The position numbers and the translations under genes are program-made. The notes beneath the pieces were generated by a model. It was given only the letters and a program-made list of their open reading frames with translations, did no database searches and was not told the DNA's origin. Shown here piece by piece: positions 2,567-62,589 of a DNA stretch of 64,000 bases (positions are counted from its first letter, which is position 1; each line of letters starts with the position of its first letter). This DNA is from Pseudomonadota bacterium. Its GTDB lineage: Bacteria > Pseudomonadota > Gammaproteobacteria > JAADHS01. Location: NCBI GenBank assembly GCA_021821045.1, contig JAKACW010000020.1, positions 4,487 through 68,486 on the forward strand, in the 5' to 3' direction.

Positions 2567-3116
2567 GGGTGGCGAATTCGGGTTGCTGCTTCTGGGTGTT
2601 GCCGATGATTTTCAGCTCGACGTATTTCGGATCCGATCCCTTGTCGACGACCAAGCTGGTGCCCCGTTTGAAATCGCGACCGTGTGGGCCCTTGCCGGTA
2701 AAAAAAGCGACGAGTTCATTCTTTCCGGTGCGCACGTTGCCCATATAAAGCCGCTGCACGCCCCCGCGTCGCAGAGCATCAAGTTCGCGTTCCGTGTAGA
2801 GGTAGTGGGCCACGGTTTTGTCATTAACCTTCAATTCCACCGAATCCAGCCCGAACAGCTCTCCCGTGTCCATGGACAAAAAAACGACCAATTCGGTGCT
2901 GGGCGGATAAAGTAACTCTTCCTCAAGGATGAACAGATCGCGGTTGAGGTCGAGCACGTCCTTTTTCAGATTCTGTGCCCGCTGGTCGACCGTTTCCGGC
3001 AGCATGGACGACACATCATCGACGCCTTGGGCGAAAGCGATCACCGGCGCCGCGAGCAAGACCAGAACAAGATGTTTCAGACGTCTAATGCGTGTTTTCA
3101 GCATGGTCAGTACCAT
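2556..3116 (-). CDS. periplasmic hypothetical protein (186 aa)
   Basis: ORF with a signal peptide (LVLVLLAAPVIAFA). It overlaps both neighbours by about 10 nt, suggesting translational coupling. No family recognised. Confidence 0.7.
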   Translation of the reverse strand: MVLTMLKTRIRRLKHLVLVLLAAPVIAFAQGVDDVSSMLPETVDQRAQNLKKDVLDLNRDLFILEEELLYPPSTELVVFLSMDTGELFGLDSVELKVNDKTVAHYLYTERELDALRRGGVQRLYMGNVRTGKNELVAFFTGKGPHGRDFKRGTSLVVDKGSDPKYVELKIIGNTQKQQPEFATREW

Positions 3117-4222
3117 AGGATGAATGACAGTTGGAGCAAGTAGGCGTCGAAAGCGTAGAGCTGTCCCGATCGCACATCCGTGAAATTGTCGTAGTCATAG
3201 TCGAAGTAGTCGTAACTGACGGTTACCGTTCCCTTGTTTACGTTACGTTGTGATCCCGGCTTGAGCAATTCATAGCTCACTTTAGCCCCCAGCGCGTAAC
3301 TTGTGAACTGGCTCAACTCTTTGTCGCGACTCATGTAGTTGAGTTCGGTGCTGAAGTTATCGCTATAGAACGACGCATCCGACTGGGTATAAGCCTGGAC
3401 GCGCCACTGGGCCAGCAGGCGGTCGCCGATACGTTGGTTGAGCGCCGCTTCCAGGGTGTGGCCGCCAATGTCCCAGTCGTCGCGATAGAAACGATAACCG
3501 AGCTGCAGGCCAAAATGTTGCGATAGGCGTCGCAAGCCTTGAAGGCGTAGGGCGTGACTGGCATGGGTGTCGGGGTAGCGCTCCGGTACGCTGGCGCCCA
3601 AAACACGCGCCGAGCGGTAGGGATTTGCCAATGCGCCATGATCGATGATCGCTTCATAGTCGAATTGGGCGATCCACTGCGGCGTGACCAGTTGCCTGAC
3701 GCCGACGCGATACAGGTGACGGTCGACATCGCCTCTGAAGTCCGTATCGACCCGTGTTTTTTCCTCCCAACCGCGGCCGTAGCCCAGGTGCAACGTGCCA
3801 GTCCCGCCGTTTATGTCTTGCCAGAGGTGAACGTCGAGATGCGTTGCGTCGTAGTCGTCTTCCGATGCAGTGATGGCCGTGACGTTGATGAGCGTGTCGT
3901 TGATCGTATAGTCGCCGGCGAGGGACAAGCGGTCGCGCCGGTCATCGTAGGGGCTGGCCGTGGTGATCACGTCGATGGAGGCGCTGCTGATGATGTCGGC
4001 GCTGTACTCGCCCGCGAAGGACCAGCTCTGGGCGACGGACTTGCGCACGAGAATCGCCGGGCTGCTCACGTCGACGCCGCCGCCGCTGTAGGTCGAATAA
4101 GCGCCCTCGGTGCGATCGGCGGGAAGGGCGGCGGCCTGGCAAAGGCCGGCGACAAAGCACAACGCCAAACCGCTGTGCCGAGATCCGTGGTGGATACGAG
4201 ATCTAGTCGCAGCCACAGCCAT
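3107..4222 (-). CDS. DUF3570-like outer-membrane beta-barrel protein
   Basis: The sequence shows alternating beta-strand patterns rich in Y/D/S/G and a C-terminal aromatic residue (LSFILWY). It sits directly downstream of a DUF4266-type lipoprotein gene, the usual partner of DUF3570. The start is uncertain: ATG at 4222 or GTG at 4252. Confidence 0.7.
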   Translation of the reverse strand: MAVAATRSRIHHGSRHSGLALCFVAGLCQAAALPADRTEGAYSTYSGGGVDVSSPAILVRKSVAQSWSFAGEYSADIISSASIDVITTASPYDDRRDRLSLAGDYTINDTLINVTAITASEDDYDATHLDVHLWQDINGGTGTLHLGYGRGWEEKTRVDTDFRGDVDRHLYRVGVRQLVTPQWIAQFDYEAIIDHGALANPYRSARVLGASVPERYPDTHASHALRLQGLRRLSQHFGLQLGYRFYRDDWDIGGHTLEAALNQRIGDRLLAQWRVQAYTQSDASFYSDNFSTELNYMSRDKELSQFTSYALGAKVSYELLKPGSQRNVNKGTVTVSYDYFDYDYDNFTDVRSGQLYAFDAYLLQLSFILWY

Positions 4223-4481
4223 CTCCGGGCAGCCCGACGGCACCGCGCGCACCTTGATGCACCGCGATTGCGACTTCGCGCTGGCGGTCCACCAGCGAAT
4301 GGTCCTGCGCGTTTAATAGCGGGTCGTTGAGCGCGTCGCGTTCGTAGGGCTTGACCCACGGGTTCGCCGCGCATCCGGCGGATAGCATGGCCCAGCCCAT
4401 AATTGTGCTGGCGAAGAGGATGGCCGTGAACCAATGGGCGTGGCGCTGCCATGGCGGCGACTGAATCGGCGCGTTAGGCAT
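4203..4481 (-). CDS. DUF4266-like small lipoprotein
   Basis: It has a lipobox (MLSAGC), then NPWVKPYERDAL, and a C-terminal GDGCGCD. This matches the family signature I recall (C-terminal GGCGC-type motif). The track ORF extends to 4535, but that extension runs through a REP unit at 4492-4511. Confidence 0.7.
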   Translation of the reverse strand: MPNAPIQSPPWQRHAHWFTAILFASTIMGWAMLSAGCAANPWVKPYERDALNDPLLNAQDHSLVDRQREVAIAVHQGARGAVGLPGDGCGCD

Positions 4482-4531: not shown

Positions 4532-5020
4532 TCATTGATTCAACAACTGCTTGATGATTTCGTCATACTTCTTTTCCTGTCCCGGCTTGTAGCCCTTGTA
4601 TTCGAATTGCACCATACCGTCGCGATCGATGATGTAGGTTTGGGGAAGGTCGTCCGGTTGGTACAACCCGCTGGCGGTTTTGCGCGTGTCGAACAGAGTG
4701 GGGAACTCGATGTCGAGCCGTCGAATGGCGTTGCGCGCCGCGGCTTCGTCGTTGTCGAGGTTGACGCCCAAGACCTGCAATCCCTGGGCATGATAGCGTT
4801 CATGCAAATCCTGCAGCGCGGGCAATTCCTGAGCGCAGGGCCCGCACCAGCTGCCCCAGAAATTCAGCAGAATGACGTCGCCGCGAAACTCATGCAAACG
4901 CAGGTTGACGCCCGCGGCGCTTTTCAGGGTGAAGTCCGGCGCCACGACGCCGATTTGAAGGGCGTTTGCCGGCGCTGCGGTGAGAGAGAGCAGCAGAACC
5001 AACCATAGCTTTGCATTCAT
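4532..5020 (-). CDS. TlpA-family periplasmic thiol:disulfide oxidoreductase
   Basis: Contains WCGPC in a thioredoxin/AhpC-TSA-like context (FTLKS...VILLNFWGSWCGPCAQELP) and a signal peptide beginning MNAKLWLVLLLSL. The true ATG is at 5020. The 50 upstream codons in the track are translated REP repeats. Confidence 0.88.
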   Translation of the reverse strand: MNAKLWLVLLLSLTAAPANALQIGVVAPDFTLKSAAGVNLRLHEFRGDVILLNFWGSWCGPCAQELPALQDLHERYHAQGLQVLGVNLDNDEAAARNAIRRLDIEFPTLFDTRKTASGLYQPDDLPQTYIIDRDGMVQFEYKGYKPGQEKKYDEIIKQLLNQ

Positions 5021-5065: not shown

Positions 5066-5252
5066 AATCGCGGAATGATCCGCTCCCACAACCGAGGTCC
5101 AGTCCCGCTGTGGGAGCGGTTTCCTACCGCGATTCTTCGCCGCGTCAATCGCGGAATGATCTGCTCCCACAATAGAGGCTCAGTCCTGTTGTGGGAGCGG
5201 TTTCCTACCGCGATTCTTCGCTGCGTCAATCGCGGAATGATCCGCTCCCACA
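5066..5252. repeat. REP-like array: five units in alternating orientation, 81-nt period
   Basis: AATCGCGGAATGATCCGCTCCCACA occurs at 5066, 5147 and 5228. It alternates with the inverted variant GTGGGAGCGGTTTCCTACCGCGATT at about 5110 and 5191. Confidence 0.92.
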
Positions 5253-5271: not shown

Positions 5272-6036
5272 CTAAAAGAAAATCGTCAATCCCGTTTGTA
5301 AAGCCAAATTGTGCGTCGTCTTGCTGCGGCCCACGATGTCCGTATCGAAAACATGGTCGCGAAAGTCCACCCGGACGGCGAACCAGTCATTGCCCAGGAT
5401 GCGTACGCCGATGCCGTAGTTGATGGTGAAATACCCCTCGTCGGCCACGTCGGTGTTGCCCAGGCCGCCGATCACGTAAACTTGCGCGGTGTACGCCGTT
5501 TTGCGGCCCAAAAATAATTCTCCGGGCAACAAATTGAAGCCGACGCTCAGGTTGTAGTAACTGAGAGTTTGGTCTTCCTCGGGAAACAGACTGAGGCCGA
5601 TGCTGCGGAAAGTGGTGTCCGAGACTTCCGCCAAGGCGAAAACGCCTTCGAAGAAAATGTCTTCCGTGACGTGATAGGCCGCCTGTGTCCCGTACTGAAC
5701 CTCGGTGCCGAAATCTTCCAGGCTGTAGAGGCCGATGAAGGCGCCGACTTCGAAATCTTCCGTGTCGATTTTCGGCAGCTTTTCCGGGAGGCGGCTGACC
5801 TCGGGTTGGATGATTTGTTCGTCTTCGCCGGGCGGCTCATCGGGGACGGGTTGTTGTGCGAGGCAGAGAGGGGGCGTTAGGATCCCGCACGCCACGCTAA
5901 ACAGAATATGTCGCAACGCTCGCCCTTGTGCGAGCGGTTTTCGCTGTGCATGGATGTGCGACAGCGTATGTCTCGCGATACTAAAAAACAAACGAAAAGC
6001 CCCCCGTAATTTCGTCGTATTCCCGCGCGCGGCCAT
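5272..6036 (-). CDS. outer-membrane beta-barrel protein (OMP_b-brl-like)
   Basis: Has an acidic linker followed by amphipathic beta-strands, ending in TGLTIFF. The ATG at 6036 overlaps the upstream gene by 56 nt. An in-frame TTG at 5916 would give a cleaner signal peptide (RHILFSVACGILTPPLCLA). Confidence 0.7.
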   Translation of the reverse strand: MAARGNTTKLRGAFRLFFSIARHTLSHIHAQRKPLAQGRALRHILFSVACGILTPPLCLAQQPVPDEPPGEDEQIIQPEVSRLPEKLPKIDTEDFEVGAFIGLYSLEDFGTEVQYGTQAAYHVTEDIFFEGVFALAEVSDTTFRSIGLSLFPEEDQTLSYYNLSVGFNLLPGELFLGRKTAYTAQVYVIGGLGNTDVADEGYFTINYGIGVRILGNDWFAVRVDFRDHVFDTDIVGRSKTTHNLALQTGLTIFF

Positions 6037-6763
6037 CGTCCACTAGGATAACAAAATTGCGATAGTCCACGCGCAGCATGAAGCGTTCAGTTAGATGAGC
6101 GTAAAGCCCCAATCCGACAATGCCGGCCAGCGAGTTGCTGGCTTGCGGGTCGACCAAGGTTTTTCGCGGCGTGTCGCGGAACTGACCCGCGCCGAGGGAC
6201 AGCAGCGGAACGAATAAACCCTTGCGTGCCGGAAGGGCGACCAGATGCAGGGAATACGCTTGGGTGCTGGTGTACGTGCCGGAGACTTGCGAAACATTCA
6301 ATTCACTCTGCAAGTGCTCGTTGAAGGCATAGTTGGCGCGGAACGTCATCACGGTTTGACCTTCCATGTCTCCCCCTGCCACACCGAAGACCAGTCGGTC
6401 GCGCAGAAAATGATCCACCAAAACGTCGCGAAATTCGGTTTCGCTGCCGGCCTCGGTGAGTGTCAGCTCCATTTCCTGGCGGGTGGCCCAGCCCTGGAGG
6501 CCGTCTTCCGTGACAATCTGAAACCAGTCGGTGCGGCGTTTGAGCACGGTGATCCACCCGCCGCGTTTGACGACATGGAAGACGGGATAGCCGCGTCCAG
6601 GTCCGGAGTGTATTTCCAAATAGGGCTCCGCGACTTGGACTCTAGGGGTGGCGGGTTTTTCGGCAACAGCAACCATGCTCCAACACGCCGAAAAGGCGAT
6701 CCAAGCAACGCAGAGAACGACACGGGCGGCGCGCTGTAGCAGCGGCCACGGCCGCGAATTCAT
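5981..6763 (-). CDS. SH3b-domain / outer-membrane beta-barrel fusion protein
   Basis: Has a signal peptide (VVLCVAWIAFSACWSMVAVA) and a bacterial SH3-like segment (YLEIHSGPGRGYPVFHVVKRGGWITVLKRRTDWFQIVTEDGLQGWA). A beta-barrel follows, ending in GGFSFVF. Alternative starts are at 6832 and 6853, but a REP unit lies at 6791-6808. Confidence 0.7.
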   Translation of the reverse strand: MNSRPWPLLQRAARVVLCVAWIAFSACWSMVAVAEKPATPRVQVAEPYLEIHSGPGRGYPVFHVVKRGGWITVLKRRTDWFQIVTEDGLQGWATRQEMELTLTEAGSETEFRDVLVDHFLRDRLVFGVAGGDMEGQTVMTFRANYAFNEHLQSELNVSQVSGTYTSTQAYSLHLVALPARKGLFVPLLSLGAGQFRDTPRKTLVDPQASNSLAGIVGLGLYAHLTERFMLRVDYRNFVILVDDGRAREYDEITGGFSFVF

Positions 6764-6790
6764 CCCGAGTTCGCGCGCGGATTGTGTTTT

Positions 6791-6808
6791 CGCGAGCATG
6801 CTCGCTCC
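6791..6808. repeat. REP-like unit, loop variant C
   Basis: CGCGAGCATGCTCGCTCC, a perfect GCGAGC-AT-GCTCGC palindrome. Same family as the units at 4492 and 13216. Confidence 0.65.
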
Positions 6809-6828
6809 TTCATCTGCGCGCAAGACAC

Positions 6829-7371
6829 TCATGGGACGGGGTCCGCTAAGCAACGCCGCGATGCATCGTTGGGAAAGTGGTCCAATTGCGGGCAGGATTC
6901 CGTGGTGCTCGCTTGGGGATTGGAAATCCAGTAATACAACTCTTGATAGTGATGGTCATTGGGATCGGCGAAAATGTCGCCGCCGGAATGGCTGCCGACG
7001 ATGGAAGGCGAGCCCGCTAAAGGTTCCAGCAGGATCTTGCTCATGGCCGGGTCGCCGACGTTGACGAACGCCTTGGCGGAAATGAAGTTCGCCGTCATTT
7101 CGAGGCTGCCGCCCGCGGCGCGCGGAAACAATTTGAAGGTGCCGCCGGCGCCGTTGTCCACATTGTGGCAGCCTTCGCCCGCGCAAGTGACGGTGAGCCC
7201 CGTGGCGGACGCGGCGAACGGCTCGGTGAGCACGCTGTCGACGCAGGCCTCGTAATATTCCTGGCACACCGTCGCGCCAGTGGTGACCGGCTCGACGGTG
7301 ACTTCGTTGCAGCCGCTCAGCAGCGCGGCGGCCAGGAGCGAGTGTCCAATCGAAGTCTTATTGAGGCGCAT
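6829..7371 (-). CDS. hypothetical lipoprotein with a CX4CH motif
   Basis: Has a lipobox (LLAAALLSGC) when started at M35 (7371), which overlaps the upstream stop by 14 nt. CAGEGCH is encoded at 7165-7185. No family recognised. Confidence 0.65.
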   Translation of the reverse strand: MRLNKTSIGHSLLAAALLSGCNEVTVEPVTTGATVCQEYYEACVDSVLTEPFAASATGLTVTCAGEGCHNVDNGAGGTFKLFPRAAGGSLEMTANFISAKAFVNVGDPAMSKILLEPLAGSPSIVGSHSGGDIFADPNDHHYQELYYWISNPQASTTESCPQLDHFPNDASRRCLADPVP

Positions 7372-10300
7372 TGGCGAATCTTGCGGCATCGATCCAATTG
7401 GAAATGGTTTGGTAGTCGGCCGCCGCTGTCTCATCGGCGGGTGCTTGCGGGGATAAGACCGGTACCCGCGCATCGGGCGAGGTTCGCGATGGCACTTGCG
7501 GATGAGCGGGGTTGGGGCTCAGTCCGTTGGAGCCTGCGTAGGCCAACAGCGCACTGCGGCCGGGATCGCCGAGCACGGATACGAACGCGGCGGTGATGTT
7601 GAAGTCGCCCTCGACCCGCCCGGTTAACACGAAAGACGGCGTCTTGGCGCCGCTTTGCACCGGCGCGGTGTTGTCCGAAACGCTGGACGGGCGATGACAG
7701 CCGGCGCAGCGGCGCAACAGGACGGGATGCACGCTGGCGACGAACTCATCGCCATTGAGCGTCCGCACCGTTCCTCGGACTTCCGTCAGTTCCCGGATGC
7801 CGTTGGCGTTGACATCGTCGCCGAAGGGATCATTGTAGTACTGCGCACCCAGATCCACCCACTCGACGATCAGGCGTTTCTCGGCGGCGTTTAGAAAACC
7901 GCTGTGGTCGACGCTGGCGCCGAGCGGTCGACTTGAACGCAGTTCCTCGCCGAACAGTGTTTCCACTAAGAAGCTTTCGCGGCTTGCTCCGGCGATAACC
8001 AAGGGAAGCGCGCGCCGAACCACAACTTCGTTGTTTAGCACCTCCGCTGTCACCTGGGCGTTGGCATCGCGCAGGGGAGCGCCCAGCAGCAACGCGCCAT
8101 AGCTGGCAAGCATGTTTTCGTCTGTGAACAGCCCCCGCAGATCCAACCCGCGCGAGATGGCGTCGCTTGCGCTGGTGTTGTTGTGGCAATTGGTGCAGGT
8201 GTTCGCGCCGCGGTTCTTGATCCACAGCGGCTGGATGTGGTCGGGATAGTGGATCAACCCGTTTTCCGGCGCCAATGTGGTGAGATCCTCCAGCGGCAGC
8301 GCGGCATCGGCGCAGTCCGTATTGCCGACGTAGCGTATCGTAATGCATGGGTTGACGCGGTCGCCCCAGACGTCGGAATAGCCGATGTCCGGGCCCAGTA
8401 TGGCCTGCTCCGGAAAAGTCCGCACCCGCGTCTCCGCCATCGATTCGCCCAGGGTGGCCGCCGGTATGGGGTGAATGTTGATGTTGATGGTCGCTAAGTT
8501 GGAGTCTTCGTTGCCATCGTTGGCCACCCAAGTGAAGCTGTCCGTGCCGATGGGCGCGTCGTTATTGGCGGTGTAGGTGAACGCGCCGGTGGTGGGATCG
8601 CTTATCACGACAACGCCAAAGCCGGGCGGATCGACGATGCGGTACACCAGCGGGTCGCCTTCCGGGTCGACCGCGAACAAGCGGCTGGTGGCCGATGCGC
8701 CGGGGTGGACGTGAATCAAATCGTCGCCATCGGCGCCGAACAGCGGCGGGTGATTGCCCGCAATGGGGTCGGTGTTGAGTGCCGCGCCGCGGCGGGGCGA
8801 GTGGCAACCGTTGCAGGTGCGGGTTTCGCCCGGTCGAACCTGCAGCCAATGGGTGTGCGGCGTGAACGCCCGGCCGTTGCTGTCCAGCACGCTCAATGCA
8901 AGCGGCGTGTCGGCCGGCACTTCGATTTTCGCCGAGCCATCGGGTTCAACTTCGGCGTAGCCGATGATTTGTTCCATCGTGAAGGGCGTTTCCCCAATGA
9001 ATCGCCGGCCCAAACCCGGTGGGATGGGAACGGCGCGGGTTACCCGCAGAAACCGGGCGGGGCGCTCGCTCGCCGGTGTCGCCGGATTCTTCAACTGCGC
9101 GATGTCGGCCACCATCGCCCGAGTGTCGCCGGCCGGCGCGGCAATAAGTGGAACCGACTCATTGCCCGCGAAAACGCCGTCGCCCATGCGGCCCAGCTCA
9201 TCGGTGTCGTAGACGCTCTTGATATTTAGAATGCCTTTGTTTTGCGTCGCCAAGCGCTCGTTGAGCGGTCTGTCCTCGATGGTATCCGGCGCCGGTCGCG
9301 GCTGCAGCGCGATGGGATCCGTCACGGCATAACCGCGTGGCGCTAAGACCACAGGACGCAAGGTCTTGTCCGTGAGATCAAGCATGTAAACGCCGTATAC
9401 CGGCGCGCCCTCGACCGTTTCAATATCGCCTGTCAAAGGATGAGGCCGCTGTTCCGGCTGCAGCGGCGACCAACTTACCAGAATGCGCGACGTGCCGTCC
9501 CATAGTGGATACGGTGTGGTGTAGCGCCCGTAAGGCGAAGCGCTGACGTCGAGGGGAATCTCGAACAGCGTCGGTTGCTGCTGTGTTTGGCCGCTTACCG
9601 GCGCGTTCGGCGCGGGGCGATCGTTGTCGGAGTAGTTGTGCACGTCGACAATCACCAAAGCGCCGCCCTCGCGGGTGGTTCCCATGGGTGTCAGCGTCGA
9701 CACCACGCGGCCGTCTTGCATCTCCCGCGGGTGAAGAAAACTCTCCCCAGGGCTGTGCGCGCCATAGAGCACAAACATCCCCGTCCCGTCGGGATTGGCG
9801 TAAAAAATCGAATACTGATTGCGCGGCCCCGCGTTGTCCCAGCGGCTGAACATGATTTCGCCGCTCGATAACACAGTCGGATTGCGGTCGTGGCTTTGAT
9901 TGAAGGATATCTGGCGGATGTCGCTGCCGTCGCCATTCATGATGTGAAGCACCAATGCGCGCTCGCGTCCCGCCTCGTCCACGAAGGCAAAGGTTTCATG
10001 GCCGGCGGTCGCGATCAGCGCCTGACTTTGCGTCTGTCGATTGGAGCTGAATACGATGCGCCCGTCAGGCAAGTACGCGGGATCGACGTCATCGCCCAGA
10101 TCCGCGACGAGGTCGTCGCCGACCAACCGCTCCAGGCGATCGAGAACCCGATCGTATTGCCAGATGTTCCATGTTCTGTCGCCGGGGCCGCGCATGGAAA
10201 AGACGATGCGTTGTCCATCGAAGGAAACCTCCGGGTCGCTGACGTCACCTTGACCCTTGGTATAGCGGGCCGTGACATTGCGCTCCTGGGCGCTGGGAGA

Positions 10301-10552
10301 GGAGAGGTCTCGAATATAAAGATCGCCGCCGAGTCGAAAACCGATGCCGTCGATCGCGGCGCCCAGTGCGTCGACCGGCCGTTTCACATAAGCGATCGCG
10401 AAGTCGCCCCGAAATACCGGTGCCGCATTTGCGCTGTCGTCACCGCCGCCATCGCCGCCGCACCCCAGCAGCGCGAGCGCCGCGAGCCATGCCCATCCGA
10501 AAAACAAAGCGCGCCGGCTGGCCGCGGTTGAGAGGACTCGGTGTATCGACAT
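7358..10552 (-). CDS. PD40 beta-propeller lipoprotein with three CXXCH heme-c motifs (HzsA-related type)
   Basis: 1064 aa with a lipobox (LALLGCGG) and TolB/PD40-like repeats (PEVSFDGQRIVFS, PAYLPDGRIVFSSNR). CNGCH is at 8801-8815, CTNCH at 8183-8197 and CAGCH at 7694-7708. It also has a cadherin/Ig-like insert (DPEGDPLVYRIVD...DSFTWVANDG). Confidence 0.8.
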   Translation of the reverse strand: MSIHRVLSTAASRRALFFGWAWLAALALLGCGGDGGGDDSANAAPVFRGDFAIAYVKRPVDALGAAIDGIGFRLGGDLYIRDLSSPSAQERNVTARYTKGQGDVSDPEVSFDGQRIVFSMRGPGDRTWNIWQYDRVLDRLERLVGDDLVADLGDDVDPAYLPDGRIVFSSNRQTQSQALIATAGHETFAFVDEAGRERALVLHIMNGDGSDIRQISFNQSHDRNPTVLSSGEIMFSRWDNAGPRNQYSIFYANPDGTGMFVLYGAHSPGESFLHPREMQDGRVVSTLTPMGTTREGGALVIVDVHNYSDNDRPAPNAPVSGQTQQQPTLFEIPLDVSASPYGRYTTPYPLWDGTSRILVSWSPLQPEQRPHPLTGDIETVEGAPVYGVYMLDLTDKTLRPVVLAPRGYAVTDPIALQPRPAPDTIEDRPLNERLATQNKGILNIKSVYDTDELGRMGDGVFAGNESVPLIAAPAGDTRAMVADIAQLKNPATPASERPARFLRVTRAVPIPPGLGRRFIGETPFTMEQIIGYAEVEPDGSAKIEVPADTPLALSVLDSNGRAFTPHTHWLQVRPGETRTCNGCHSPRRGAALNTDPIAGNHPPLFGADGDDLIHVHPGASATSRLFAVDPEGDPLVYRIVDPPGFGVVVISDPTTGAFTYTANNDAPIGTDSFTWVANDGNEDSNLATININIHPIPAATLGESMAETRVRTFPEQAILGPDIGYSDVWGDRVNPCITIRYVGNTDCADAALPLEDLTTLAPENGLIHYPDHIQPLWIKNRGANTCTNCHNNTSASDAISRGLDLRGLFTDENMLASYGALLLGAPLRDANAQVTAEVLNNEVVVRRALPLVIAGASRESFLVETLFGEELRSSRPLGASVDHSGFLNAAEKRLIVEWVDLGAQYYNDPFGDDVNANGIRELTEVRGTVRTLNGDEFVASVHPVLLRRCAGCHRPSSVSDNTAPVQSGAKTPSFVLTGRVEGDFNITAAFVSVLGDPGRSALLAYAGSNGLSPNPAHPQVPSRTSPDARVPVLSPQAPADETAAADYQTISNWIDAARFANAPQ

Positions 10553-15428: not shown

Positions 15429-16091
15429 ATGACCAAACGCTCGCTGGGTCTGTCCGATGGTTTGTATCGCTACCTGTTGGCGCATTCGCTGCGCGAACCG
15501 GACGCGCTGCGCAGATTGCGGGAGGAGACGGCGGCCCATGAGTACGCCCGCATGCAGATCGCGCCCGAGCAGGGTCAGTTCATGGCTTGGCTGGTCGAGA
15601 CATTGGGTGTCCGGCGGGCCATTGAAGTGGGGGTGTTCACGGGCTACAGCGCCGCCTGGGTCGCGTTGGCGATGCCGGCGGATGGGAAGCTAATCGCCTG
15701 CGATATCAGCAAGGAGTGGACGGACGTCGGCCGCCGCTACTGGCGGGAGGCCGGCATAGAACACAAGATCGATTTGCGTTTGGCCGCCGCCCAAGATACG
15801 TTGCTGACGTTGGTCGAGCAGGGCGAGGCGGGAACTTTCGATTTTGCCTTCATCGACGCCGACAAGACCAACTACGAGCCCTACTACGAGTTGTGTCTGG
15901 AACTGCTGCGGCCCGGCGGTGTGATCGCGGTCGACAATGTGCTGTGGGGCGGTTCCGTGGCCGATGGCGCCGTCAACGATGCCGACACCCGCGCAATCCG
16001 CCGCTTCAATGAGAAACTCCATCAAGACGCCCGTGTGAGTATCAGTCTGATTCCCATCGCCGACGGGCTGACCTTGGCACGAAAGCGCTGA
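15429..16091 (+). CDS. class I SAM-dependent O-methyltransferase (caffeoyl-CoA OMT family)
   Basis: Typical family motifs are present: MQIAPEQGQFM, AIEVGVFTGYSA, FDFAFIDADKTNY and GGVIAVDNVLWGG. Confidence 0.88.
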   Translation: MTKRSLGLSDGLYRYLLAHSLREPDALRRLREETAAHEYARMQIAPEQGQFMAWLVETLGVRRAIEVGVFTGYSAAWVALAMPADGKLIACDISKEWTDVGRRYWREAGIEHKIDLRLAAAQDTLLTLVEQGEAGTFDFAFIDADKTNYEPYYELCLELLRPGGVIAVDNVLWGGSVADGAVNDADTRAIRRFNEKLHQDARVSISLIPIADGLTLARKR

Positions 16092-16094
16092 GCC

Positions 16095-16202
16095 GTGGGA
16101 GCGGATCATTCCGCGATCTACCAGGGCGAAGAATCGCGGTAGGAAACCGCTCCCACCGAGAAGAGAATTGCAGTTGTTGGTGGGAGCGGATCATTCCGCG
16201 AC
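16095..16202. repeat. REP-like cluster (three units, variants A / B-inverted / A)
   Basis: GTGGGAGCGGATCATTCCGCGAT at 16095, ATCGCGGTAGGAAACCGCTCCCAC at about 16133, and GTGGGAGCGGATCATTCCGCGA at 16180. Confidence 0.9.
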
Positions 16203-16210
16203 TGAGCCCT

Positions 16211-16247
16211 AGAAAAACGAGAGGCCACGTTTTACCGTGGCCTCTCG
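16211..16247 (-). terminator. rho-independent terminator for the Gly/Met micro-ORF
   Basis: A 12-bp GC-rich stem (16218-16229 pairs with 16236-16247) with a 6-nt loop. On the minus strand it is followed by TTTTTCT (16211-16217). Confidence 0.75.
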
Positions 16248-16317
16248 CTGCAACTTAAAGGTACTGCTTTGGCTTTAAGTCGGCTTATGCTGCATGTAGC
16301 GCTGCAGATGGGGGCAA

Positions 16318-16407
16318 TTACATGCCGCCGCCCATTCCGCCACCGCCCATACCGCCGCCCATGCCGCCGCCGCCCATACCGCCACGTCCGCCCATACCAC
16401 CGCCCAT
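16318..16407 (-). CDS. 29-aa Gly/Met-repeat micro-protein (MGGGMGGRGGMGGGGMGGGMGGGGMGGGM)
   Basis: ATG at 16407 is preceded by GGAGG (16413-16417) with a 5-nt spacer. TAA is at 16318-16320 and a dedicated terminator lies downstream. Not in the ORF track because it is under 60 aa. No homolog recognised. Confidence 0.5.
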   Translation of the reverse strand: MGGGMGGRGGMGGGGMGGGMGGGGMGGGM

Positions 16408-16616
16408 AAATACCTCCAAAGTTCGTTTGAGTTAGGGTTGAAAATTTCTAGTTAACGCACGCTGTTGTGTCGCGTTACGGCTGATGAAGCAAACGTAATG
16501 CCAACTATGTAAGAGGTTATTTTTGCTGCAGAAAAAGTGTTTCTTGTATGTTTCATGCGGATAAATGTAAAGTTGGCCGACACGTTTTCGCGAGCGCAAG
16601 AGACATTTTTTGGCTT

Positions 16617-17225
16617 TCAGTCTGCTCTCGCTTGTTTCAACGCATCGACGATTTCTCGGCTCAGTTCGGTAACCGCCAGGCTGTGGGCCGCGGCGATCGC
16701 ATCGTAGGTGTCGTCCCGGACGGGCACCGATGTCACGGACTTATGCGTTGGATGAACGGATTCACCGCGATTGTTGCTGATAGACCAACGCGTGACGAGC
16801 TGAACGACGTTGTCGCTGCCCACATCGAAGCGCGACACTTCGATTGAAACGGTGTGATCCGCCTGCTGGCTGCCACGGGCGGGACCGGGGATGACGGCGG
16901 GCGTGTCCGCCAGAGCGGAAATGTTCTCCAATAATACCCGCAGAAAGTTTGTCCGCAGCGGTTCCGCCCAACGATGCGTCTCCGCCACGGCAATGCTGTT
17001 GTCCGATGTGCGGCGGACCATCTGCGCTCGACTCAGATAGTCGGGAAAACCGATCAATGTCACCGCAATGGTGGGCGTTTCCCCGGGTTTGGAGGGCGTG
17101 GCGGTTTCGAGAGAGGGCGCGCTCAACACGTAAAATTTCGAGGGCGGCGTCGTCGCGCACCCGGTGAAAAGCAGTGCCAGTGCGATGCTCCGGACGATCG
17201 GCGAACGGCGGCGGCGATTGTTCAT
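16617..17225 (-). CDS. PqiC-like ABC-transport auxiliary lipoprotein (DUF330 type)
   Basis: Lipobox (LLFTGCATTPP) followed by SKFYVLS, typical of the family. It is the last gene of the MCE-ABC operon, with a 4-nt overlap with the upstream gene. Confidence 0.8.
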   Translation of the reverse strand: MNNRRRRSPIVRSIALALLFTGCATTPPSKFYVLSAPSLETATPSKPGETPTIAVTLIGFPDYLSRAQMVRRTSDNSIAVAETHRWAEPLRTNFLRVLLENISALADTPAVIPGPARGSQQADHTVSIEVSRFDVGSDNVVQLVTRWSISNNRGESVHPTHKSVTSVPVRDDTYDAIAAAHSLAVTELSREIVDALKQARAD

Positions 17226-22873: not shown

Positions 22874-22953
22874 GTGGGAGCGGATCATTCCGCGATTCTT
22901 CGCCCGAATCGTCGACGCCGCCCGACTCCATCGCGGAATGATCCGCTCCCACA
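22874..22953. repeat. inverted pair of REP-like units (variant A)
   Basis: GTGGGAGCGGATCATTCCGCGATT at 22874 and ATCGCGGAATGATCCGCTCCCACA at 22930. The pair lies between convergent genes. Confidence 0.9.
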
Positions 22954-57764: not shown

Positions 57765-57935
57765 GTGGGAGCGGATCATTCCGCGATCTACTCGGCAAAC
57801 CATCGCGGTAGGAAACCGCTCCCACGAAGATGCAGCCAAGACGAGTGCGAATTTCTGTGGGAGCGGTTTCTTACCGCGATGCTTCGCTCGAGCCATTTTT
57901 ATTGTCGAGTCAATCGCGGAATGATCGCTCCCACA
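57765..57935. repeat. REP-like cluster (four units: A, B-inverted, B, A-inverted)
   Basis: Units at 57765-57787, 57802-57825, 57857-57880 and 57912-57935. Confidence 0.9.
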
Positions 57936-62533: not shown

Positions 62534-62589
62534 TATCGCGGAATGATCCGCTCCCACACCCTCGGTGGGAGCGGTTTCCTACCGCGATT
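62534..62589. repeat. inverted pair of REP-like units (A-inverted + B)
   Basis: TATCGCGGAATGATCCGCTCCCACA followed by GTGGGAGCGGTTTCCTACCGCGATT. The pair lies just after the ffh stop and may act as a terminator-like hairpin. Confidence 0.9.

Follow-up and report, generated by a model that had tools for sequence, protein, structure and literature searches.

A conserved, unannotated family of free-standing Met/Gly-repeat micro-genes in uncultured proteobacteria

A 29-codon Met/Gly reading frame on the minus strand of the window (the 64,000-nt stretch of contig JAKACW010000020.1 analysed here) is real and belongs to a conserved, unannotated family of tiny stand-alone genes in uncultured proteobacteria. 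These genes encode peptides made almost only of methionine and glycine, resembling a detached GroEL chaperonin tail, and their function has not been tested. The initial annotation described a small unit with its own Shine–Dalgarno sequence (SD), ATG, stop codon, 8-bp hairpin and terminator, and this description proved correct to the base (Table 1). Its reading of the unit as a small, separately translated and terminated ORF with a product of essentially only Met and Gly is also supported, with the amendments given below, although the functions it suggested, thioether metal binding or an oxidant sink, remain untested.

Table 1 Features of the Met/Gly micro-gene cassette in the window.
Feature	Coordinates	Strand	Sequence or structure	Basis
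5′ copy of an 18-nt imperfect direct repeat	16609-16626	-	Overlaps the stop codon of the ymbA/pqiC-like gene	Repeat search
σ54-type promoter motif	16488-16503	-	TGGCAT-N5-TTGCT (GG-N10-GC); TGGCATTACGTTTGCT at 16503-16488; predicted transcription start near 16476	Only match to TGGCA[CT]N5TTGC[AT] on either strand of the window; function inferred from the motif only
5′-terminal hairpin of the predicted 5′ UTR	16453-16477	-	UAACGCG...CGUGCGUUA	Predicted fold
G-poor, A/U/C-rich leader	16408-16452	-	Contains GGAGG (16417-16413), then the 5-nt spacer TATTT	Sequence
Micro-ORF, 29 codons plus TAA	16318-16407	-	ATG at 16407-16405; ATG GGC GGT GGT ATG GGC GGA CGT ... ATG, reading MGGGMGGRGGMGGGGMGGGMGGGGMGGGM; TAA at 16320-16318	Sequence and family comparison
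Hairpin including the last Gly-Met codons and the stop codon	16292-16325	-	GCAUGUA...UACAUGC	In both the MFE and the centroid structure; role unknown
3′ copy of the 18-nt direct repeat	16268-16285	-	AGC[A/C]GACT[G/T]AAAGCCAAA	Repeat search, 89% identity
AT-rich 8-bp hairpin in the 3′ UTR	16253-16280	-	ACUUAAAG/CUUUAAGU; 5′ arm inside the 18-nt direct repeat	Visible in the sequence; weak and absent from the centroid
Intrinsic terminator	16211-16249	-	12-14 bp GC-rich stem, arms 16218-16229 and 16236-16247 (100% complementary), loop GUAAAA, then UUUUUCU	Fold and inverted repeat

The 131-nt 3′ region folds at -51.3 kcal/mol (z = -4.1 against shuffles), and the 12-bp arms of the terminator extend to 14 bp in this fold. 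A simple terminator consensus scan did not list this hairpin, so the evidence for it is the fold and the inverted repeat. The weaker 8-bp hairpin, ACTTAAAG/CTTTAAGT (16280-16273 / 16260-16253), is present as had been described. The cassette lies in a 525-nt gap between the flanking genes (16092-16616), with MlaE, an ABC ATPase, MlaD and an ABC_trans_aux (PqiC/YmbA-like) lipoprotein upstream on the same strand and a convergent Methyltransf_3 O-methyltransferase downstream. As the initial annotation had stated, no modifying enzyme is adjacent and no co-oriented gene lies downstream in the window. However, we see no terminator between the upstream ymbA-like gene and the micro-ORF, either by eye or in the consensus scan, and the micro-ORF may therefore also be co-transcribed with that operon and is not necessarily insulated from it. 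The two copies of the 18-nt direct repeat bracket the promoter and ORF, suggesting that the cassette was inserted between ymbA and its original terminator.

We then compared the cassette with relatives of the same lineage, in which conservation of the frame, SD and ATG had been proposed in advance as a test of the ORF. Two such relatives keep the SD and ATG and change the ORF only by in-frame unit changes and synonymous GGN changes. Loci L005 and L008 (98% YmbA identity) carry a clean 12-nt in-frame deletion plus a synonymous GGC-to-GGT change, while L009 and L010 (85% YmbA identity) keep GGAGG-TATTT-ATG and read MGGGMGGGGMGGGGMGG..., with synonymous GGN changes and a 3-nt length change. No frame-breaking indels, one of the outcomes that would have counted against the ORF, were found. 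The promoter-to-ATG stretch is about 93% identical in L009, and the last 33 nt before the ATG are 100% identical, against 75% at third codon positions of the neighbouring ymbA. A (GGN)n/ATG triplet repeat nonetheless keeps its frame automatically, and its third-position changes are also synonymous in the complementary Pro frame, so that frame conservation and 3-periodicity alone do not prove translation of this strand; that argument rests on the SD/ATG/TAA placement and on promoter and terminator polarity. A conserved opposite-strand polyproline frame had likewise been named as a refuting result, and although all six frames are open across the repeat, the opposite-strand poly-Pro, His/Ala and Arg/Cys frames have no consistent start, SD or extent.

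A metagenome pattern scan and an independent synteny walk recovered 12 more distinct ORF sequences of the form (M-G2-10)n-M, 18–52 aa long, in three kinds of gene neighbourhood, and the cassette persists across hosts whose neighbouring proteins are only about 60% identical. An SD-ATG pattern with spacer N{3,9} had first given 55 loci in viral contigs, all inside larger Gly-rich proteins, because GGA GGN is itself Gly-Gly when the spacer is 4 or 7; this led to the out-of-frame spacer N{5,6}. A further pattern ending in MGGGMGGGM-TAA gave no hits in viral contigs. In the metagenome scan, 8 of 30 hits are stand-alone M/G ORFs, representing 6 distinct ORF sequences, and the synteny walk, which did not use the DNA pattern, found four more (L096, L100, L101 and L102) and re-found L089. 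Part of the family was found with a pattern that imposed the SD plus MGGGMGG, but all 11 complete cassettes, including those found without the pattern, have an SD, an ATG at the first repeat, a TAA directly after the last Met, and a hairpin with a T-rich tail 41–174 nt later. Locus L069 carries two tandem cassettes, and an AACTT(T)-type motif recurs upstream of the SD in other clades. The members whose neighbouring genes carry names come from uncultured Gammaproteobacteria. The samples that hold the contigs include SRR13304626, the SRR332302xx runs and the JGI Ga0315xxx sediments.

Of 418 sense codons in the family, 102 are ATG (24%) and 309 are Gly codons (GGC 174, GGT 106, GGA 29, GGG 0), whereas host genes use GGG for 8–17% of Gly codons; only 7 codons are neither Met nor Gly. 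Entropy is 0.13, 0.13 and 1.32 bits at codon positions 1, 2 and 3, such that the first two positions are nearly invariant and the third varies freely. In the window, the array is an imperfect 12/15-nt repeat with diversified third codon positions and is not a homogenised microsatellite. The recurrence of the same anatomy in unrelated contigs also indicates more than chance.

The linkage to pqiC/MCE operons that had been put forward as a test is not recurrent, as other family members sit next to a fused MFS/spermidine-synthase gene or a TPR gene. In another clade, the stress-gene neighbours Hsp20, HtrA and Usp are found, and a tblastn search of the window for homologues of the other clades' neighbours (spermidine-synthase fusion, AsnB, Hsp20, TPR and TraB) found none. 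A contig scan with the YmbA-like neighbour returned only 32–41% relatives, none with a micro-ORF; named species carrying the cassette were not surveyed. 'Kaarinaea lacus' was considered as a cultured carrier but is a cyanobacterium, and the 59% 'fused MFS/spermidine synthase' record under that name is probably a contaminant contig, with no encoding contig on record. In one sub-clade (L074, L079, L096 and L101), an asparagine synthase gene, asnB (MCGI... start), begins 6–60 nt after the conserved CAACGGCRCC hairpin, co-oriented with the micro-ORF, so that a leader or operon role cannot be excluded there. A RiPP or lasso reading for this asnB and ABC-exporter neighbourhood was rejected, since asnB passes the asparagine synthase cut-off of NCBIfam (441.7 against 267.1 bits) and fails the lasso cyclase cut-off (219.7 against 525). 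The window peptide likewise lacks the leader-core organisation and modifiable residues (Cys/Ser/Thr, or Asp/Glu for a lactam) of a RiPP precursor such as a lasso or microcin B17-type peptide, and no maturation gene lies next to it.

Upstream of the ATG, by 81 nt, we identified a single σ54-type promoter motif that had not been noticed in the initial annotation. Its -24 GG and -12 GC elements are correctly spaced, it is the only strict match in the window, and it is conserved in L009 with one change inside the spacer; in the predicted 5′-terminal hairpin, a U-to-C change in L009 shifts the register but keeps a 7-bp stem. The σ54 assignment is a motif match. No GAFTGA-type enhancer-binding protein is encoded in the window, and a conserved block 50–100 nt upstream contains no recognisable dyad, which leaves the presence of activator sites and a cognate activator undecided. 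Sites of the CIRCE, σ32, LexA, LuxO or GlrR type were sought upstream by eye only, and no convincing match was seen. In the L074 sub-clade, a Crp/Fnr-type dyad, TGTC-N8-GACA, is centred about -41.5 and is shared with the promoter of a Tat-exported multicopper-oxidase/NirK-like gene next to two Crp/Fnr genes.

Searches of existing collections did not reveal a description of this family. Rfam 15 gave no hits at gathering score in the window or in 8 related loci, and none at E ≤ 1 in 16050-16700, and Pfam and NCBIfam searches of the peptides found nothing. None of six family peptides looked up by exact sequence is present in a collection of 15 billion proteins. A protein search with a natural 49-aa family member gave 1009 word-sharing candidates, none at E ≤ 10, but HMMER's composition correction erases the similarity, and this is not evidence of absence. 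Assemblers break at the repeat, and gene callers sometimes call the wrong strand. In agreement with the initial annotation, we found no published description of such a free-standing peptide. A pattern scan with an out-of-frame SD, followed by a synteny walk, can recover low-complexity micro-ORF families that profile methods cannot see.

We favour, with about even confidence, a model in which this is a genuine, translated micro-gene of a previously unannotated family of free-standing (Met-Gly2-10)n-Met peptides. In this view, the gene would be transcribed from a σ54-dependent promoter, and possibly also by read-through from the upstream mlaEFD-ymbA-like operon, would be translated efficiently owing to a consensus SD at 5 nt, an unstructured leader, the lack of GGG codons and a TAA stop, and its transcription would end at the strong intrinsic terminator, with the 3′ end expected in the U-tract at 16211-16217. 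The product, with no signal peptide and no residues other than Met, Gly and one Arg, should be a disordered cytosolic peptide. Its expected average mass is about 2290.6 Da, or about 2159.5 Da after removal of the N-terminal Met, plus 16 Da per oxidised Met; with a single internal Arg at residue 8 and no Lys, a tryptic digest would leave two low-complexity Gly/Met fragments that are hard to identify. Because only the composition, the start and the ...GGGM end are kept across the family while unit number and Gly-run length drift freely, the peptide most likely acts in bulk through its composition, namely solvent-exposed methionine thioethers on a flexible glycine backbone. We propose a thioether buffer, either a sacrificial sink for oxidants (HOCl, peroxide, reactive nitrogen species) recycled by methionine sulfoxide reductases or a ligand for soft metals such as Cu(I), in effect a free version of the GroEL Gly-Met tail or a cytosolic analogue of the Met-rich sacrificial peptide MrpX (PMC4436054). 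The anatomy, the conservation and the family are established by our analysis, whereas transcription from the σ54 motif, translation, cellular location and function are inferences, and there is no expression, ribosome-footprint or peptide evidence of any kind. Several points weigh against a thioether buffer: no msr, cop/cus or groEL gene lies in the annotated part of the window (1-31985), no neighbour is shared across the clades, cytosolic Cu(I) is normally handled by thiolates and not thioethers, and known Met-rich scavengers and metal binders are periplasmic. It is nevertheless more likely than not that these genes represent a hitherto unrecognised family of stand-alone bacterial micro-proteins made solely of Met and Gly repeats, in effect free 'GroEL tails', which would be highly translated under specific regulators (σ54 here, Crp/Fnr-type elsewhere), would act in trans through exposed thioethers or tail-like flexibility, and would constitute a new class of composition-driven small protein that gene callers and protein databases systematically miss.

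Among the alternatives, a regulatory small RNA, purely non-coding or dual-function, is unlikely but has some support. A roughly 260-nt σ54-dependent transcript with a 5′ hairpin and an Hfq-type 3′ end (terminator plus U-tail) would have sRNA-like size and architecture and could act by base pairing or by titrating an RNA-binding protein through its G-rich repeats, with the ORF incidental or only tuning RNA stability. σ54 promoters drive sRNAs such as Qrr and GlmY, the 5′ UTR is more conserved than neutral sites, the terminator hairpin of the asnB sub-clade shows a compensatory A-U to G-C change, and the whole transcript folds better than shuffled sequences (z = -3.2). Yet beyond the lack of an Rfam match, only the ORF, its SD and its stop are shared across clades, not the UTRs, a consensus SD at optimal spacing, an ATG exactly at the first repeat and a TAA exactly after the last occur in 11 of 11 cassettes, and the strong 3-periodic constraint and GGG avoidance are not expected for a pairing or sponge RNA. 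Similarly unlikely is a cis-acting leader ORF whose translation rate would report Met-tRNA and Gly-tRNA charging, and so one-carbon or SAM status, to control termination at the downstream hairpin and thereby read-through into asnB in the sub-clade that has it, or antisense transcription into the convergent SAM-dependent O-methyltransferase in the window. The stop-codon hairpin would be melted by a terminating ribosome, and neighbours in different clades touch Met/SAM/polyamine chemistry (spermidine-synthase-like, Orn/Arg decarboxylase and O-methyltransferase). However, no co-oriented gene follows in the window, L088, L089 and L102, Met/Gly codons do not match the product of asnB, and the tandem duplication of whole cassettes in L069 suits a dosage-dependent product better than a leader. 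By inspection, we found no convincing antiterminator alternative to the 12-14 bp terminator, the only complementarity being a 6-7 nt stretch at the Arg codon, which the 85% relative lacks; no dedicated search was run, and the question of mutually exclusive structures coupled to ribosome position stays undecided. The upstream position and co-orientation expected of a leader are found only in the asnB sub-clade.

A trans-acting mimic of the chaperonin tail is an unlikely possibility, in which the free Gly-Met peptide would act on protein folding, as a flexible, mildly hydrophobic holdase-like crowding agent or as a modulator of GroEL or DnaJ-type G/M regions, and not as a redox or metal buffer. 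The composition is identical to GroEL/Hsp60 tails, L101 reads MGGDMGGMGGMGGMGGMGGGM with the GGM period of those tails, the tails are functionally important and their hydrophobicity and flexibility matter (PMC11978752), and Hsp20 and HtrA lie next to the cassette in L089 and L103. On the other hand, no groESL, dnaK or heat-shock-type promoter or operator was seen at any locus, no mechanism is known by which free tails would act, and the Gly runs of 8–10 in L102 depart from the tail pattern. Least likely is a functionless expandable triplet repeat riding on a small duplicated or inserted cassette, with the ORF an accident of the repeat. The array does evolve by unit gain and loss, and the direct repeat, the duplication in L069 and the six open frames are compatible with this reading, but it is opposed by persistence across divergent hosts and three kinds of neighbourhood, the invariant placement of SD, ATG and TAA, diversified third positions beside frozen first and second positions, the absence of GGG, and the conserved promoters.

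If translated, this would be an unusually simple conserved gene product, built from essentially two amino acids. It gives a genetic way to ask what Gly-Met sequences do, because here the 'tail' can be deleted, dosed or recoded without touching an essential chaperonin, and it would provide a natural test of methionine as an antioxidant or metal buffer in the cytosol.

Among known systems, the Gly-Met-rich C-terminal tail of GroEL/Hsp60, (GGM)4M (human Hsp60 ...GGMGGGMGGGMF), shares the composition, the terminal Met followed by a stop, and disorder and flexibility. The window peptide has 7 Met, 21 Gly and 1 Arg and ends ...GGGM, and L101 has (GGM)4, the exact GGM period. It is not continuous with a Cpn60 equatorial domain, as the ORF starts at its own ATG with an in-frame stop a few codons upstream, and the upstream gene is not cpn60. 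Most units are M-G3-4 rather than M-G2, the peptides are 18–52 residues long against about 13 for the tail, and the cassettes have their own promoter and terminator, with σ54 or Crp/Fnr-type motifs, unlike a heat-shock operon. MrpX, the periplasmic peptide of the SigF/NrsF-YedYZ hypochlorite response of Azospira suillum (PMC4436054), is also a small, low-complexity, inducible, Met-rich (about 20–25%) product whose proposed value lies in its methionines and not in a fold; MrpX is 20% Met, and 7 of 29 residues (24%) are Met in the window peptide. In contrast, MrpX has a signal peptide, is 44% charged residues, and sits in an operon with a methionine sulfoxide reductase (yedYZ) under an ECF sigma factor, whereas the window peptide begins MGGGMGG with no hydrophobic or charged N-terminal region. 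Pfam annotation of window ORFs between 638 and 31985 (32–64 kb was not annotated) and of the neighbours in L069–L103 shows no Msr or SigF/NrsF genes; methionine oxidation in vivo by reactive chlorine or oxygen species, and re-reduction, were not measured here.

The Mets-motif Cu(I)/Ag(I) binders (CusF, PcoC/CopC, PcoE/SilE, the Ctr1 ectodomain and Met-rich inserts of CueO/PcoA) similarly carry regularly spaced thioethers on a flexible segment, and M-G2-4-M spacing runs throughout the window peptide. They are extracytoplasmic and usually combine Met with His or Asp, whereas this peptide has no signal peptide, no His, and no cop/cus/pco/sil genes in the annotated part of the window, the only hint being the operator motif shared with the multicopper-oxidase/NirK-like gene in the L074 sub-clade. 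Amino-acid-sensing leader peptides and attenuators (trpL, hisL, pheL, speFL) are also very short ORFs with a strong SD, biased codon content and a terminator hairpin shortly after the stop, and in one sub-clade a biosynthetic gene follows; in the window and in two other clades it does not, and the codon content does not match the downstream pathway. Finally, σ54-dependent or dual-function small RNAs (Qrr1-5, GlmY; SgrS/SgrT, RNAIII/hld) resemble the cassette as small independent transcripts with a -24/-12 promoter motif and a Rho-independent terminator with a U-tail, and provide precedent for an sRNA that also encodes a peptide. Here, there is no conserved non-coding core across clades, and the conserved part is the ORF and its translation signals.

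The reading frame reported in the initial annotation is present exactly as described, to the base. On the minus strand, a Shine-Dalgarno sequence (SD) precedes twenty-nine codons that use only ATG, GGC/GGT/GGA and one CGT and read MGGGMGGRGGMGGGGMGGGMGGGGMGGGM. The 131-nt 3′ stretch folds at -51.3 kcal/mol (z = -4.1) and contains a perfect inverted repeat followed by UUUUUCU. A simple consensus scan did not list this textbook terminator, although it seems to meet the stated criteria of the scan; we therefore rely on the fold and the repeat finder, and negative results from that scan should be read with care. The flanking genes are also as annotated, with MlaE, an ABC ATPase, MlaD and an ABC_trans_aux (PqiC/YmbA-like) lipoprotein upstream on the same strand and a convergent Methyltransf_3 O-methyltransferase. 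The array itself is an imperfect 12/15-nt repeat.

A motif upstream of the ATG matches the σ54 -24/-12 consensus (GG-N10-GC) and is the only match to TGGCA[CT]N5TTGC[AT] on either strand of the 64-kb window. The predicted transcription start coincides with a 5′-terminal hairpin, while no enhancer-binding protein (GAFTGA motif) is encoded in the window. We see no terminator between the ymbA-like gene and the micro-ORF. Read-through from the mla/pqi-like operon is therefore possible, and the unit described as stand-alone may share the terminator of that operon. An 18-nt imperfect direct repeat (16 of 18 identical), AGC[A/C]GACT[G/T]AAAGCCAAA, brackets the promoter and micro-ORF, which looks like a duplication left when a cassette of promoter plus ORF was inserted between ymbA and its former terminator. 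A dispersed 21-nt REP-like element, CGCGGAATGATCCGCTCCCAC, occurs 9 times in the window against 0.01 expected, mostly between genes and often in pairs or triplets spaced 81–85 nt apart; two copies sit between the micro-ORF terminator and the O-methyltransferase gene. The wider neighbourhood encodes LysR, an NQO-type flavodoxin, pirin, an AhpC/TSA redoxin and sensor kinases, and the annotated part (1-31985) holds no msr, groEL or copper genes. Unrelated to the micro-ORF, two unusual surface or periplasmic proteins are encoded in the window: a 1064-aa protein with a hydrazine-synthase-alpha middle domain (HZS_alpha), PD40 and Big_9 domains, and, near it, a DUF3570 protein.

Coordinates of features in the window and in related contigs (L numbers).
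Sequence	Feature	Position	Strand	Remark
Window	SD, GGAGG	16417-16413	minus	followed by TATTT
Window	ATG	16407	minus
Window	TAA	16320-16318	minus
Window	Terminator arms	16218-16229 / 16236-16247		perfect 12-bp inverted repeat, 14 bp in the fold
Window	Terminator hairpin with T-run	16211-16249
Window	σ54-type motif TGGCATTACGTTTGCT	16503-16488	minus	81-96 nt upstream of the ATG
Window	Predicted transcription start	near 16476
Window	5′-terminal hairpin	16477-16453
Window	18-nt direct repeat	16609-16626		overlaps the ymbA stop codon
Window	18-nt direct repeat	16268-16285		in the micro-ORF 3′ UTR
Window	REP-like element	16095-16115, 16180-16200	minus
Window	REP-like element	5069-5089, 5150-5170, 5231-5251, 22932-22952, 62537-62557	plus
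Window	REP-like element	22874-22894, 57765-57785	minus
Window	REP-like element, partial inverted copy	16147-16162
Window	HZS_alpha/PD40/Big_9 protein	7358-10552	minus	1064 aa
Window	DUF3570 protein	3107-4252
L069	Two tandem micro-ORF cassettes	4894-4950 and 5348-5431		18 and 27 codons, about 455 nt apart
L074	TGTC-N8-GACA dyad	4987, 9279, 9312
L079	TGTC-N8-GACA dyad	4535, 8835
L069	TGTC-N8-GACA dyad	4776, 5231
L096	TGTC-N8-GACA dyad	2837
L074	Multicopper-oxidase/NirK-like gene	start 9413		MQIKRREFLRF...
L074	Asparagine synthase gene	5291-7288
L096	Asparagine synthase gene	575-2566	minus	ATG 6 nt from the stem, no SD visible
L101	Asparagine synthase gene	492-2456	minus
L079	Asparagine synthase gene	6523-8523	minus
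L009	ORF call over the repeat	3099-3197	minus	opposite strand
L010	ORF call over the repeat	947-1033	minus	opposite strand
L102	ORF call over the repeat	2089-2253	plus	opposite strand
L099	Apparent mis-join in the repeat	1-154

Retention of the frame and SD in relatives, with length changes in multiples of three, had been set out in the initial annotation as a test of the ORF, and the relatives examined behave in this way, although the lineage is thinly sampled. Contigs encoding an identical (L005) or 98%-identical (L008, assembly GCA_027343985.1) YmbA protein carry the same cassette with a clean 12-nt in-frame deletion, giving 25 codons, and a synonymous GGC-to-GGT change. The 85% relatives L009 and L010 keep GGAGG-TATTT-ATG and read MGGGMGGGGMGGGGMGG..., with synonymous GGN changes and a 3-nt length change that removes the Arg; both contigs end inside the repeat. 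We then compared the window with L009, using third codon positions of ymbA as a neutral proxy. Identity is 86% over all ymbA positions and 75% at its third codon positions, but about 93% from promoter to ATG and 100% over the last 33 nt before the ATG, and the σ54 motif is kept with one change in its spacer.

Profile methods fail on this sequence, so we searched for more distant members by scanning DNA. With spacers of 3–9 nt, the SD-ATG pattern hit only Gly-rich segments inside large viral proteins, because GGA GGN is itself Gly-Gly when the spacer is 4 or 7. Restricting the spacer to 5–6 nt, which puts GGAGG out of frame, gave 30 metagenome loci, of which eight are short ORFs made only of Met and Gly with a rare Ala or Thr. 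These represent six distinct ORF sequences (contigs L069, L074, L077 = L079, L084, L088 and L089). In several loci the cassette lies divergent from a ‘fused MFS/spermidine synthase’ gene, and we therefore walked the homologues of that gene without using the DNA pattern. The source names attached to these homologues point to Gammaproteobacteria MAGs; one record, attributed to the cyanobacterium Kaarinaea lacus, is 59% identical to a protein from gammaproteobacterial MAGs and is probably a contaminant contig in that assembly. The cassette was present in L096 (30 aa), L100 (at least 28 aa, starting MGGMGGG, SD AGGAG), L101 (MGGDMGGMGGMGGMGGMGGGM, SD AAGGAG), L102 (38 aa, Gly runs up to 10) and L103 (identical to L089), and was absent from L098. 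All 11 complete cassettes have an SD 5–7 nt before an ATG that is the first codon of the repeat, a TAA directly after the last Met (always ...GGGM followed by the stop), and a hairpin with a T-rich tail 41–174 nt downstream. L069 carries two complete cassettes in tandem, each with its own TGTC-N8-GACA dyad, 5′ UTR hairpin, SD and terminator. Short-read assemblies often break inside the Met/Gly repeat (contig ends of L006, L009, L010, L077, L084 and L100), and L099 appears to be mis-joined there. Gene callers placed ORFs over the repeat on the opposite strand in three contigs, and only L103 has the micro-ORF called on the right strand. These assembly breaks and gene calls are practical reasons why the family is missing from protein databases.

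To ask whether the repeat is coding, we examined codon usage over 14 cassettes. Of 309 Gly codons, 174 are GGC, 106 GGT, 29 GGA and none GGG, whereas host genes use GGG for 8–17% of Gly codons. Entropy at non-ATG codons is 0.13, 0.13 and 1.32 bits for positions 1, 2 and 3, and only 7 codons are neither Met nor Gly. The repeat is therefore frozen at the amino-acid level and diversified at the DNA level, the opposite of what a recently slipped microsatellite would show. However, (GGN)n read on the other strand is (CCN)n, so these changes are also synonymous in the poly-Pro frame, and triplet slippage preserves any frame. What singles out the Met/Gly strand is the exact placement of SD, ATG and TAA, the polarity of the terminators, and the promoters. 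Conservation of the opposite-strand polyproline frame had been named in advance as grounds for rejecting the ORF; the opposite-strand frames are open but have no consistent start, SD or extent, and long poly-Pro tracts are poorly translatable. We consider a translated gene likely, although there is no direct expression evidence, and the reading of the initial annotation, a small ORF with its own translation signals and terminator, is supported.

Context and regulation differ between clades. In the window, the cassette lies after mlaEFD-ymbA and carries the σ54 motif. In the L084/L088 clade it lies after a TPR gene, in an operon with an Orn/Arg decarboxylase-like gene and a urea-transporter/M23 fusion, and has a good σ70 promoter, TTGATT-16-TAATAT. 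In the L089/L102/L103 clade it is divergent from the MFS/spermidine-synthase fusion, with Hsp20 and HtrA on one side in L089 and L103, and Usp, a c7-type cytochrome and a molybdopterin oxidoreductase on the other; a TTGACA-17-TAGTTT promoter precedes a long 5′ UTR. In the L069/L074/L079/L096 sub-clade, a TGTC-N8-GACA dyad sits about 41.5 bp upstream of the predicted start, which is the class II Crp/Fnr geometry. The same dyad occurs twice in the promoter of a Tat-exported two-domain multicopper-oxidase/NirK-like gene and once beside a Crp/Fnr gene, where two Crp/Fnr-family regulators are encoded, suggesting a small regulon of unknown signal. In this sub-clade, an authentic glutamine-hydrolysing asparagine synthase gene (asnB) follows the cassette, 6–60 nt after a conserved hairpin, CAACGGCRCC-N4-GGYGCCGTTG, which shows a compensatory A-U to G-C change. 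The initial annotation had proposed recurrent linkage to pqiC-like/MCE operons as a check, but no neighbour is shared by all clades, and the window holds no homologue of the neighbours found in the other clades.

The analysis itself establishes that the micro-ORF is conserved, has canonical, strong translation signals, promoters with regulator-dependent motifs and optimal-looking codon usage, tolerates almost any unit number (5–14 Met) and Gly-run length (2–10), and is tandemly duplicated in one genome; what the product does is our inference from these features. They fit a product needed in bulk, whose function resides in composition and not in sequence or fold. With no signal peptide or transmembrane segment, the product should be cytosolic and disordered. 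We therefore favour an exposed-thioether buffer, which would act as a sacrificial methionine sink for oxidants, recycled by Msr enzymes, as shown for periplasmic MrpX (PMC4436054), or as a soft-metal ligand. The operator shared with a copper/NirK-like protein and the stress-gene neighbours give weak support to that direction. A folding role like that of the GroEL tail (PMC11978752) is a narrower alternative. The cassette could instead specify a regulatory or dual-function RNA, or a leader ORF, the latter being plausible only where asnB follows, or it could be a neutral repeat.

The finding is real and not an artefact and, as far as these tools can tell, has not been described: no Rfam, Pfam or NCBIfam family matches, and literature searches returned only chaperonin tails and the Sis1 G/M region. 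The family is new, whereas composition-driven small proteins akin to a Met-rich scavenger have precedent. We regard a truly functional family of free Gly-Met micro-proteins as somewhat more likely than not; its conservation at the family level is striking and easy to test, but its function is still inferred. The micro-ORF resembles leader peptides in size but, in this window, nothing lies downstream. It resembles Mets-motif copper proteins in its M-Xn-M spacing, but is not extracytoplasmic and is not linked to cop genes. It resembles MrpX in Met content, but lacks the signal peptide, the charged residues and the Msr operon. It resembles the GroEL tail in composition, but does not share the defining feature of being part of a chaperonin.
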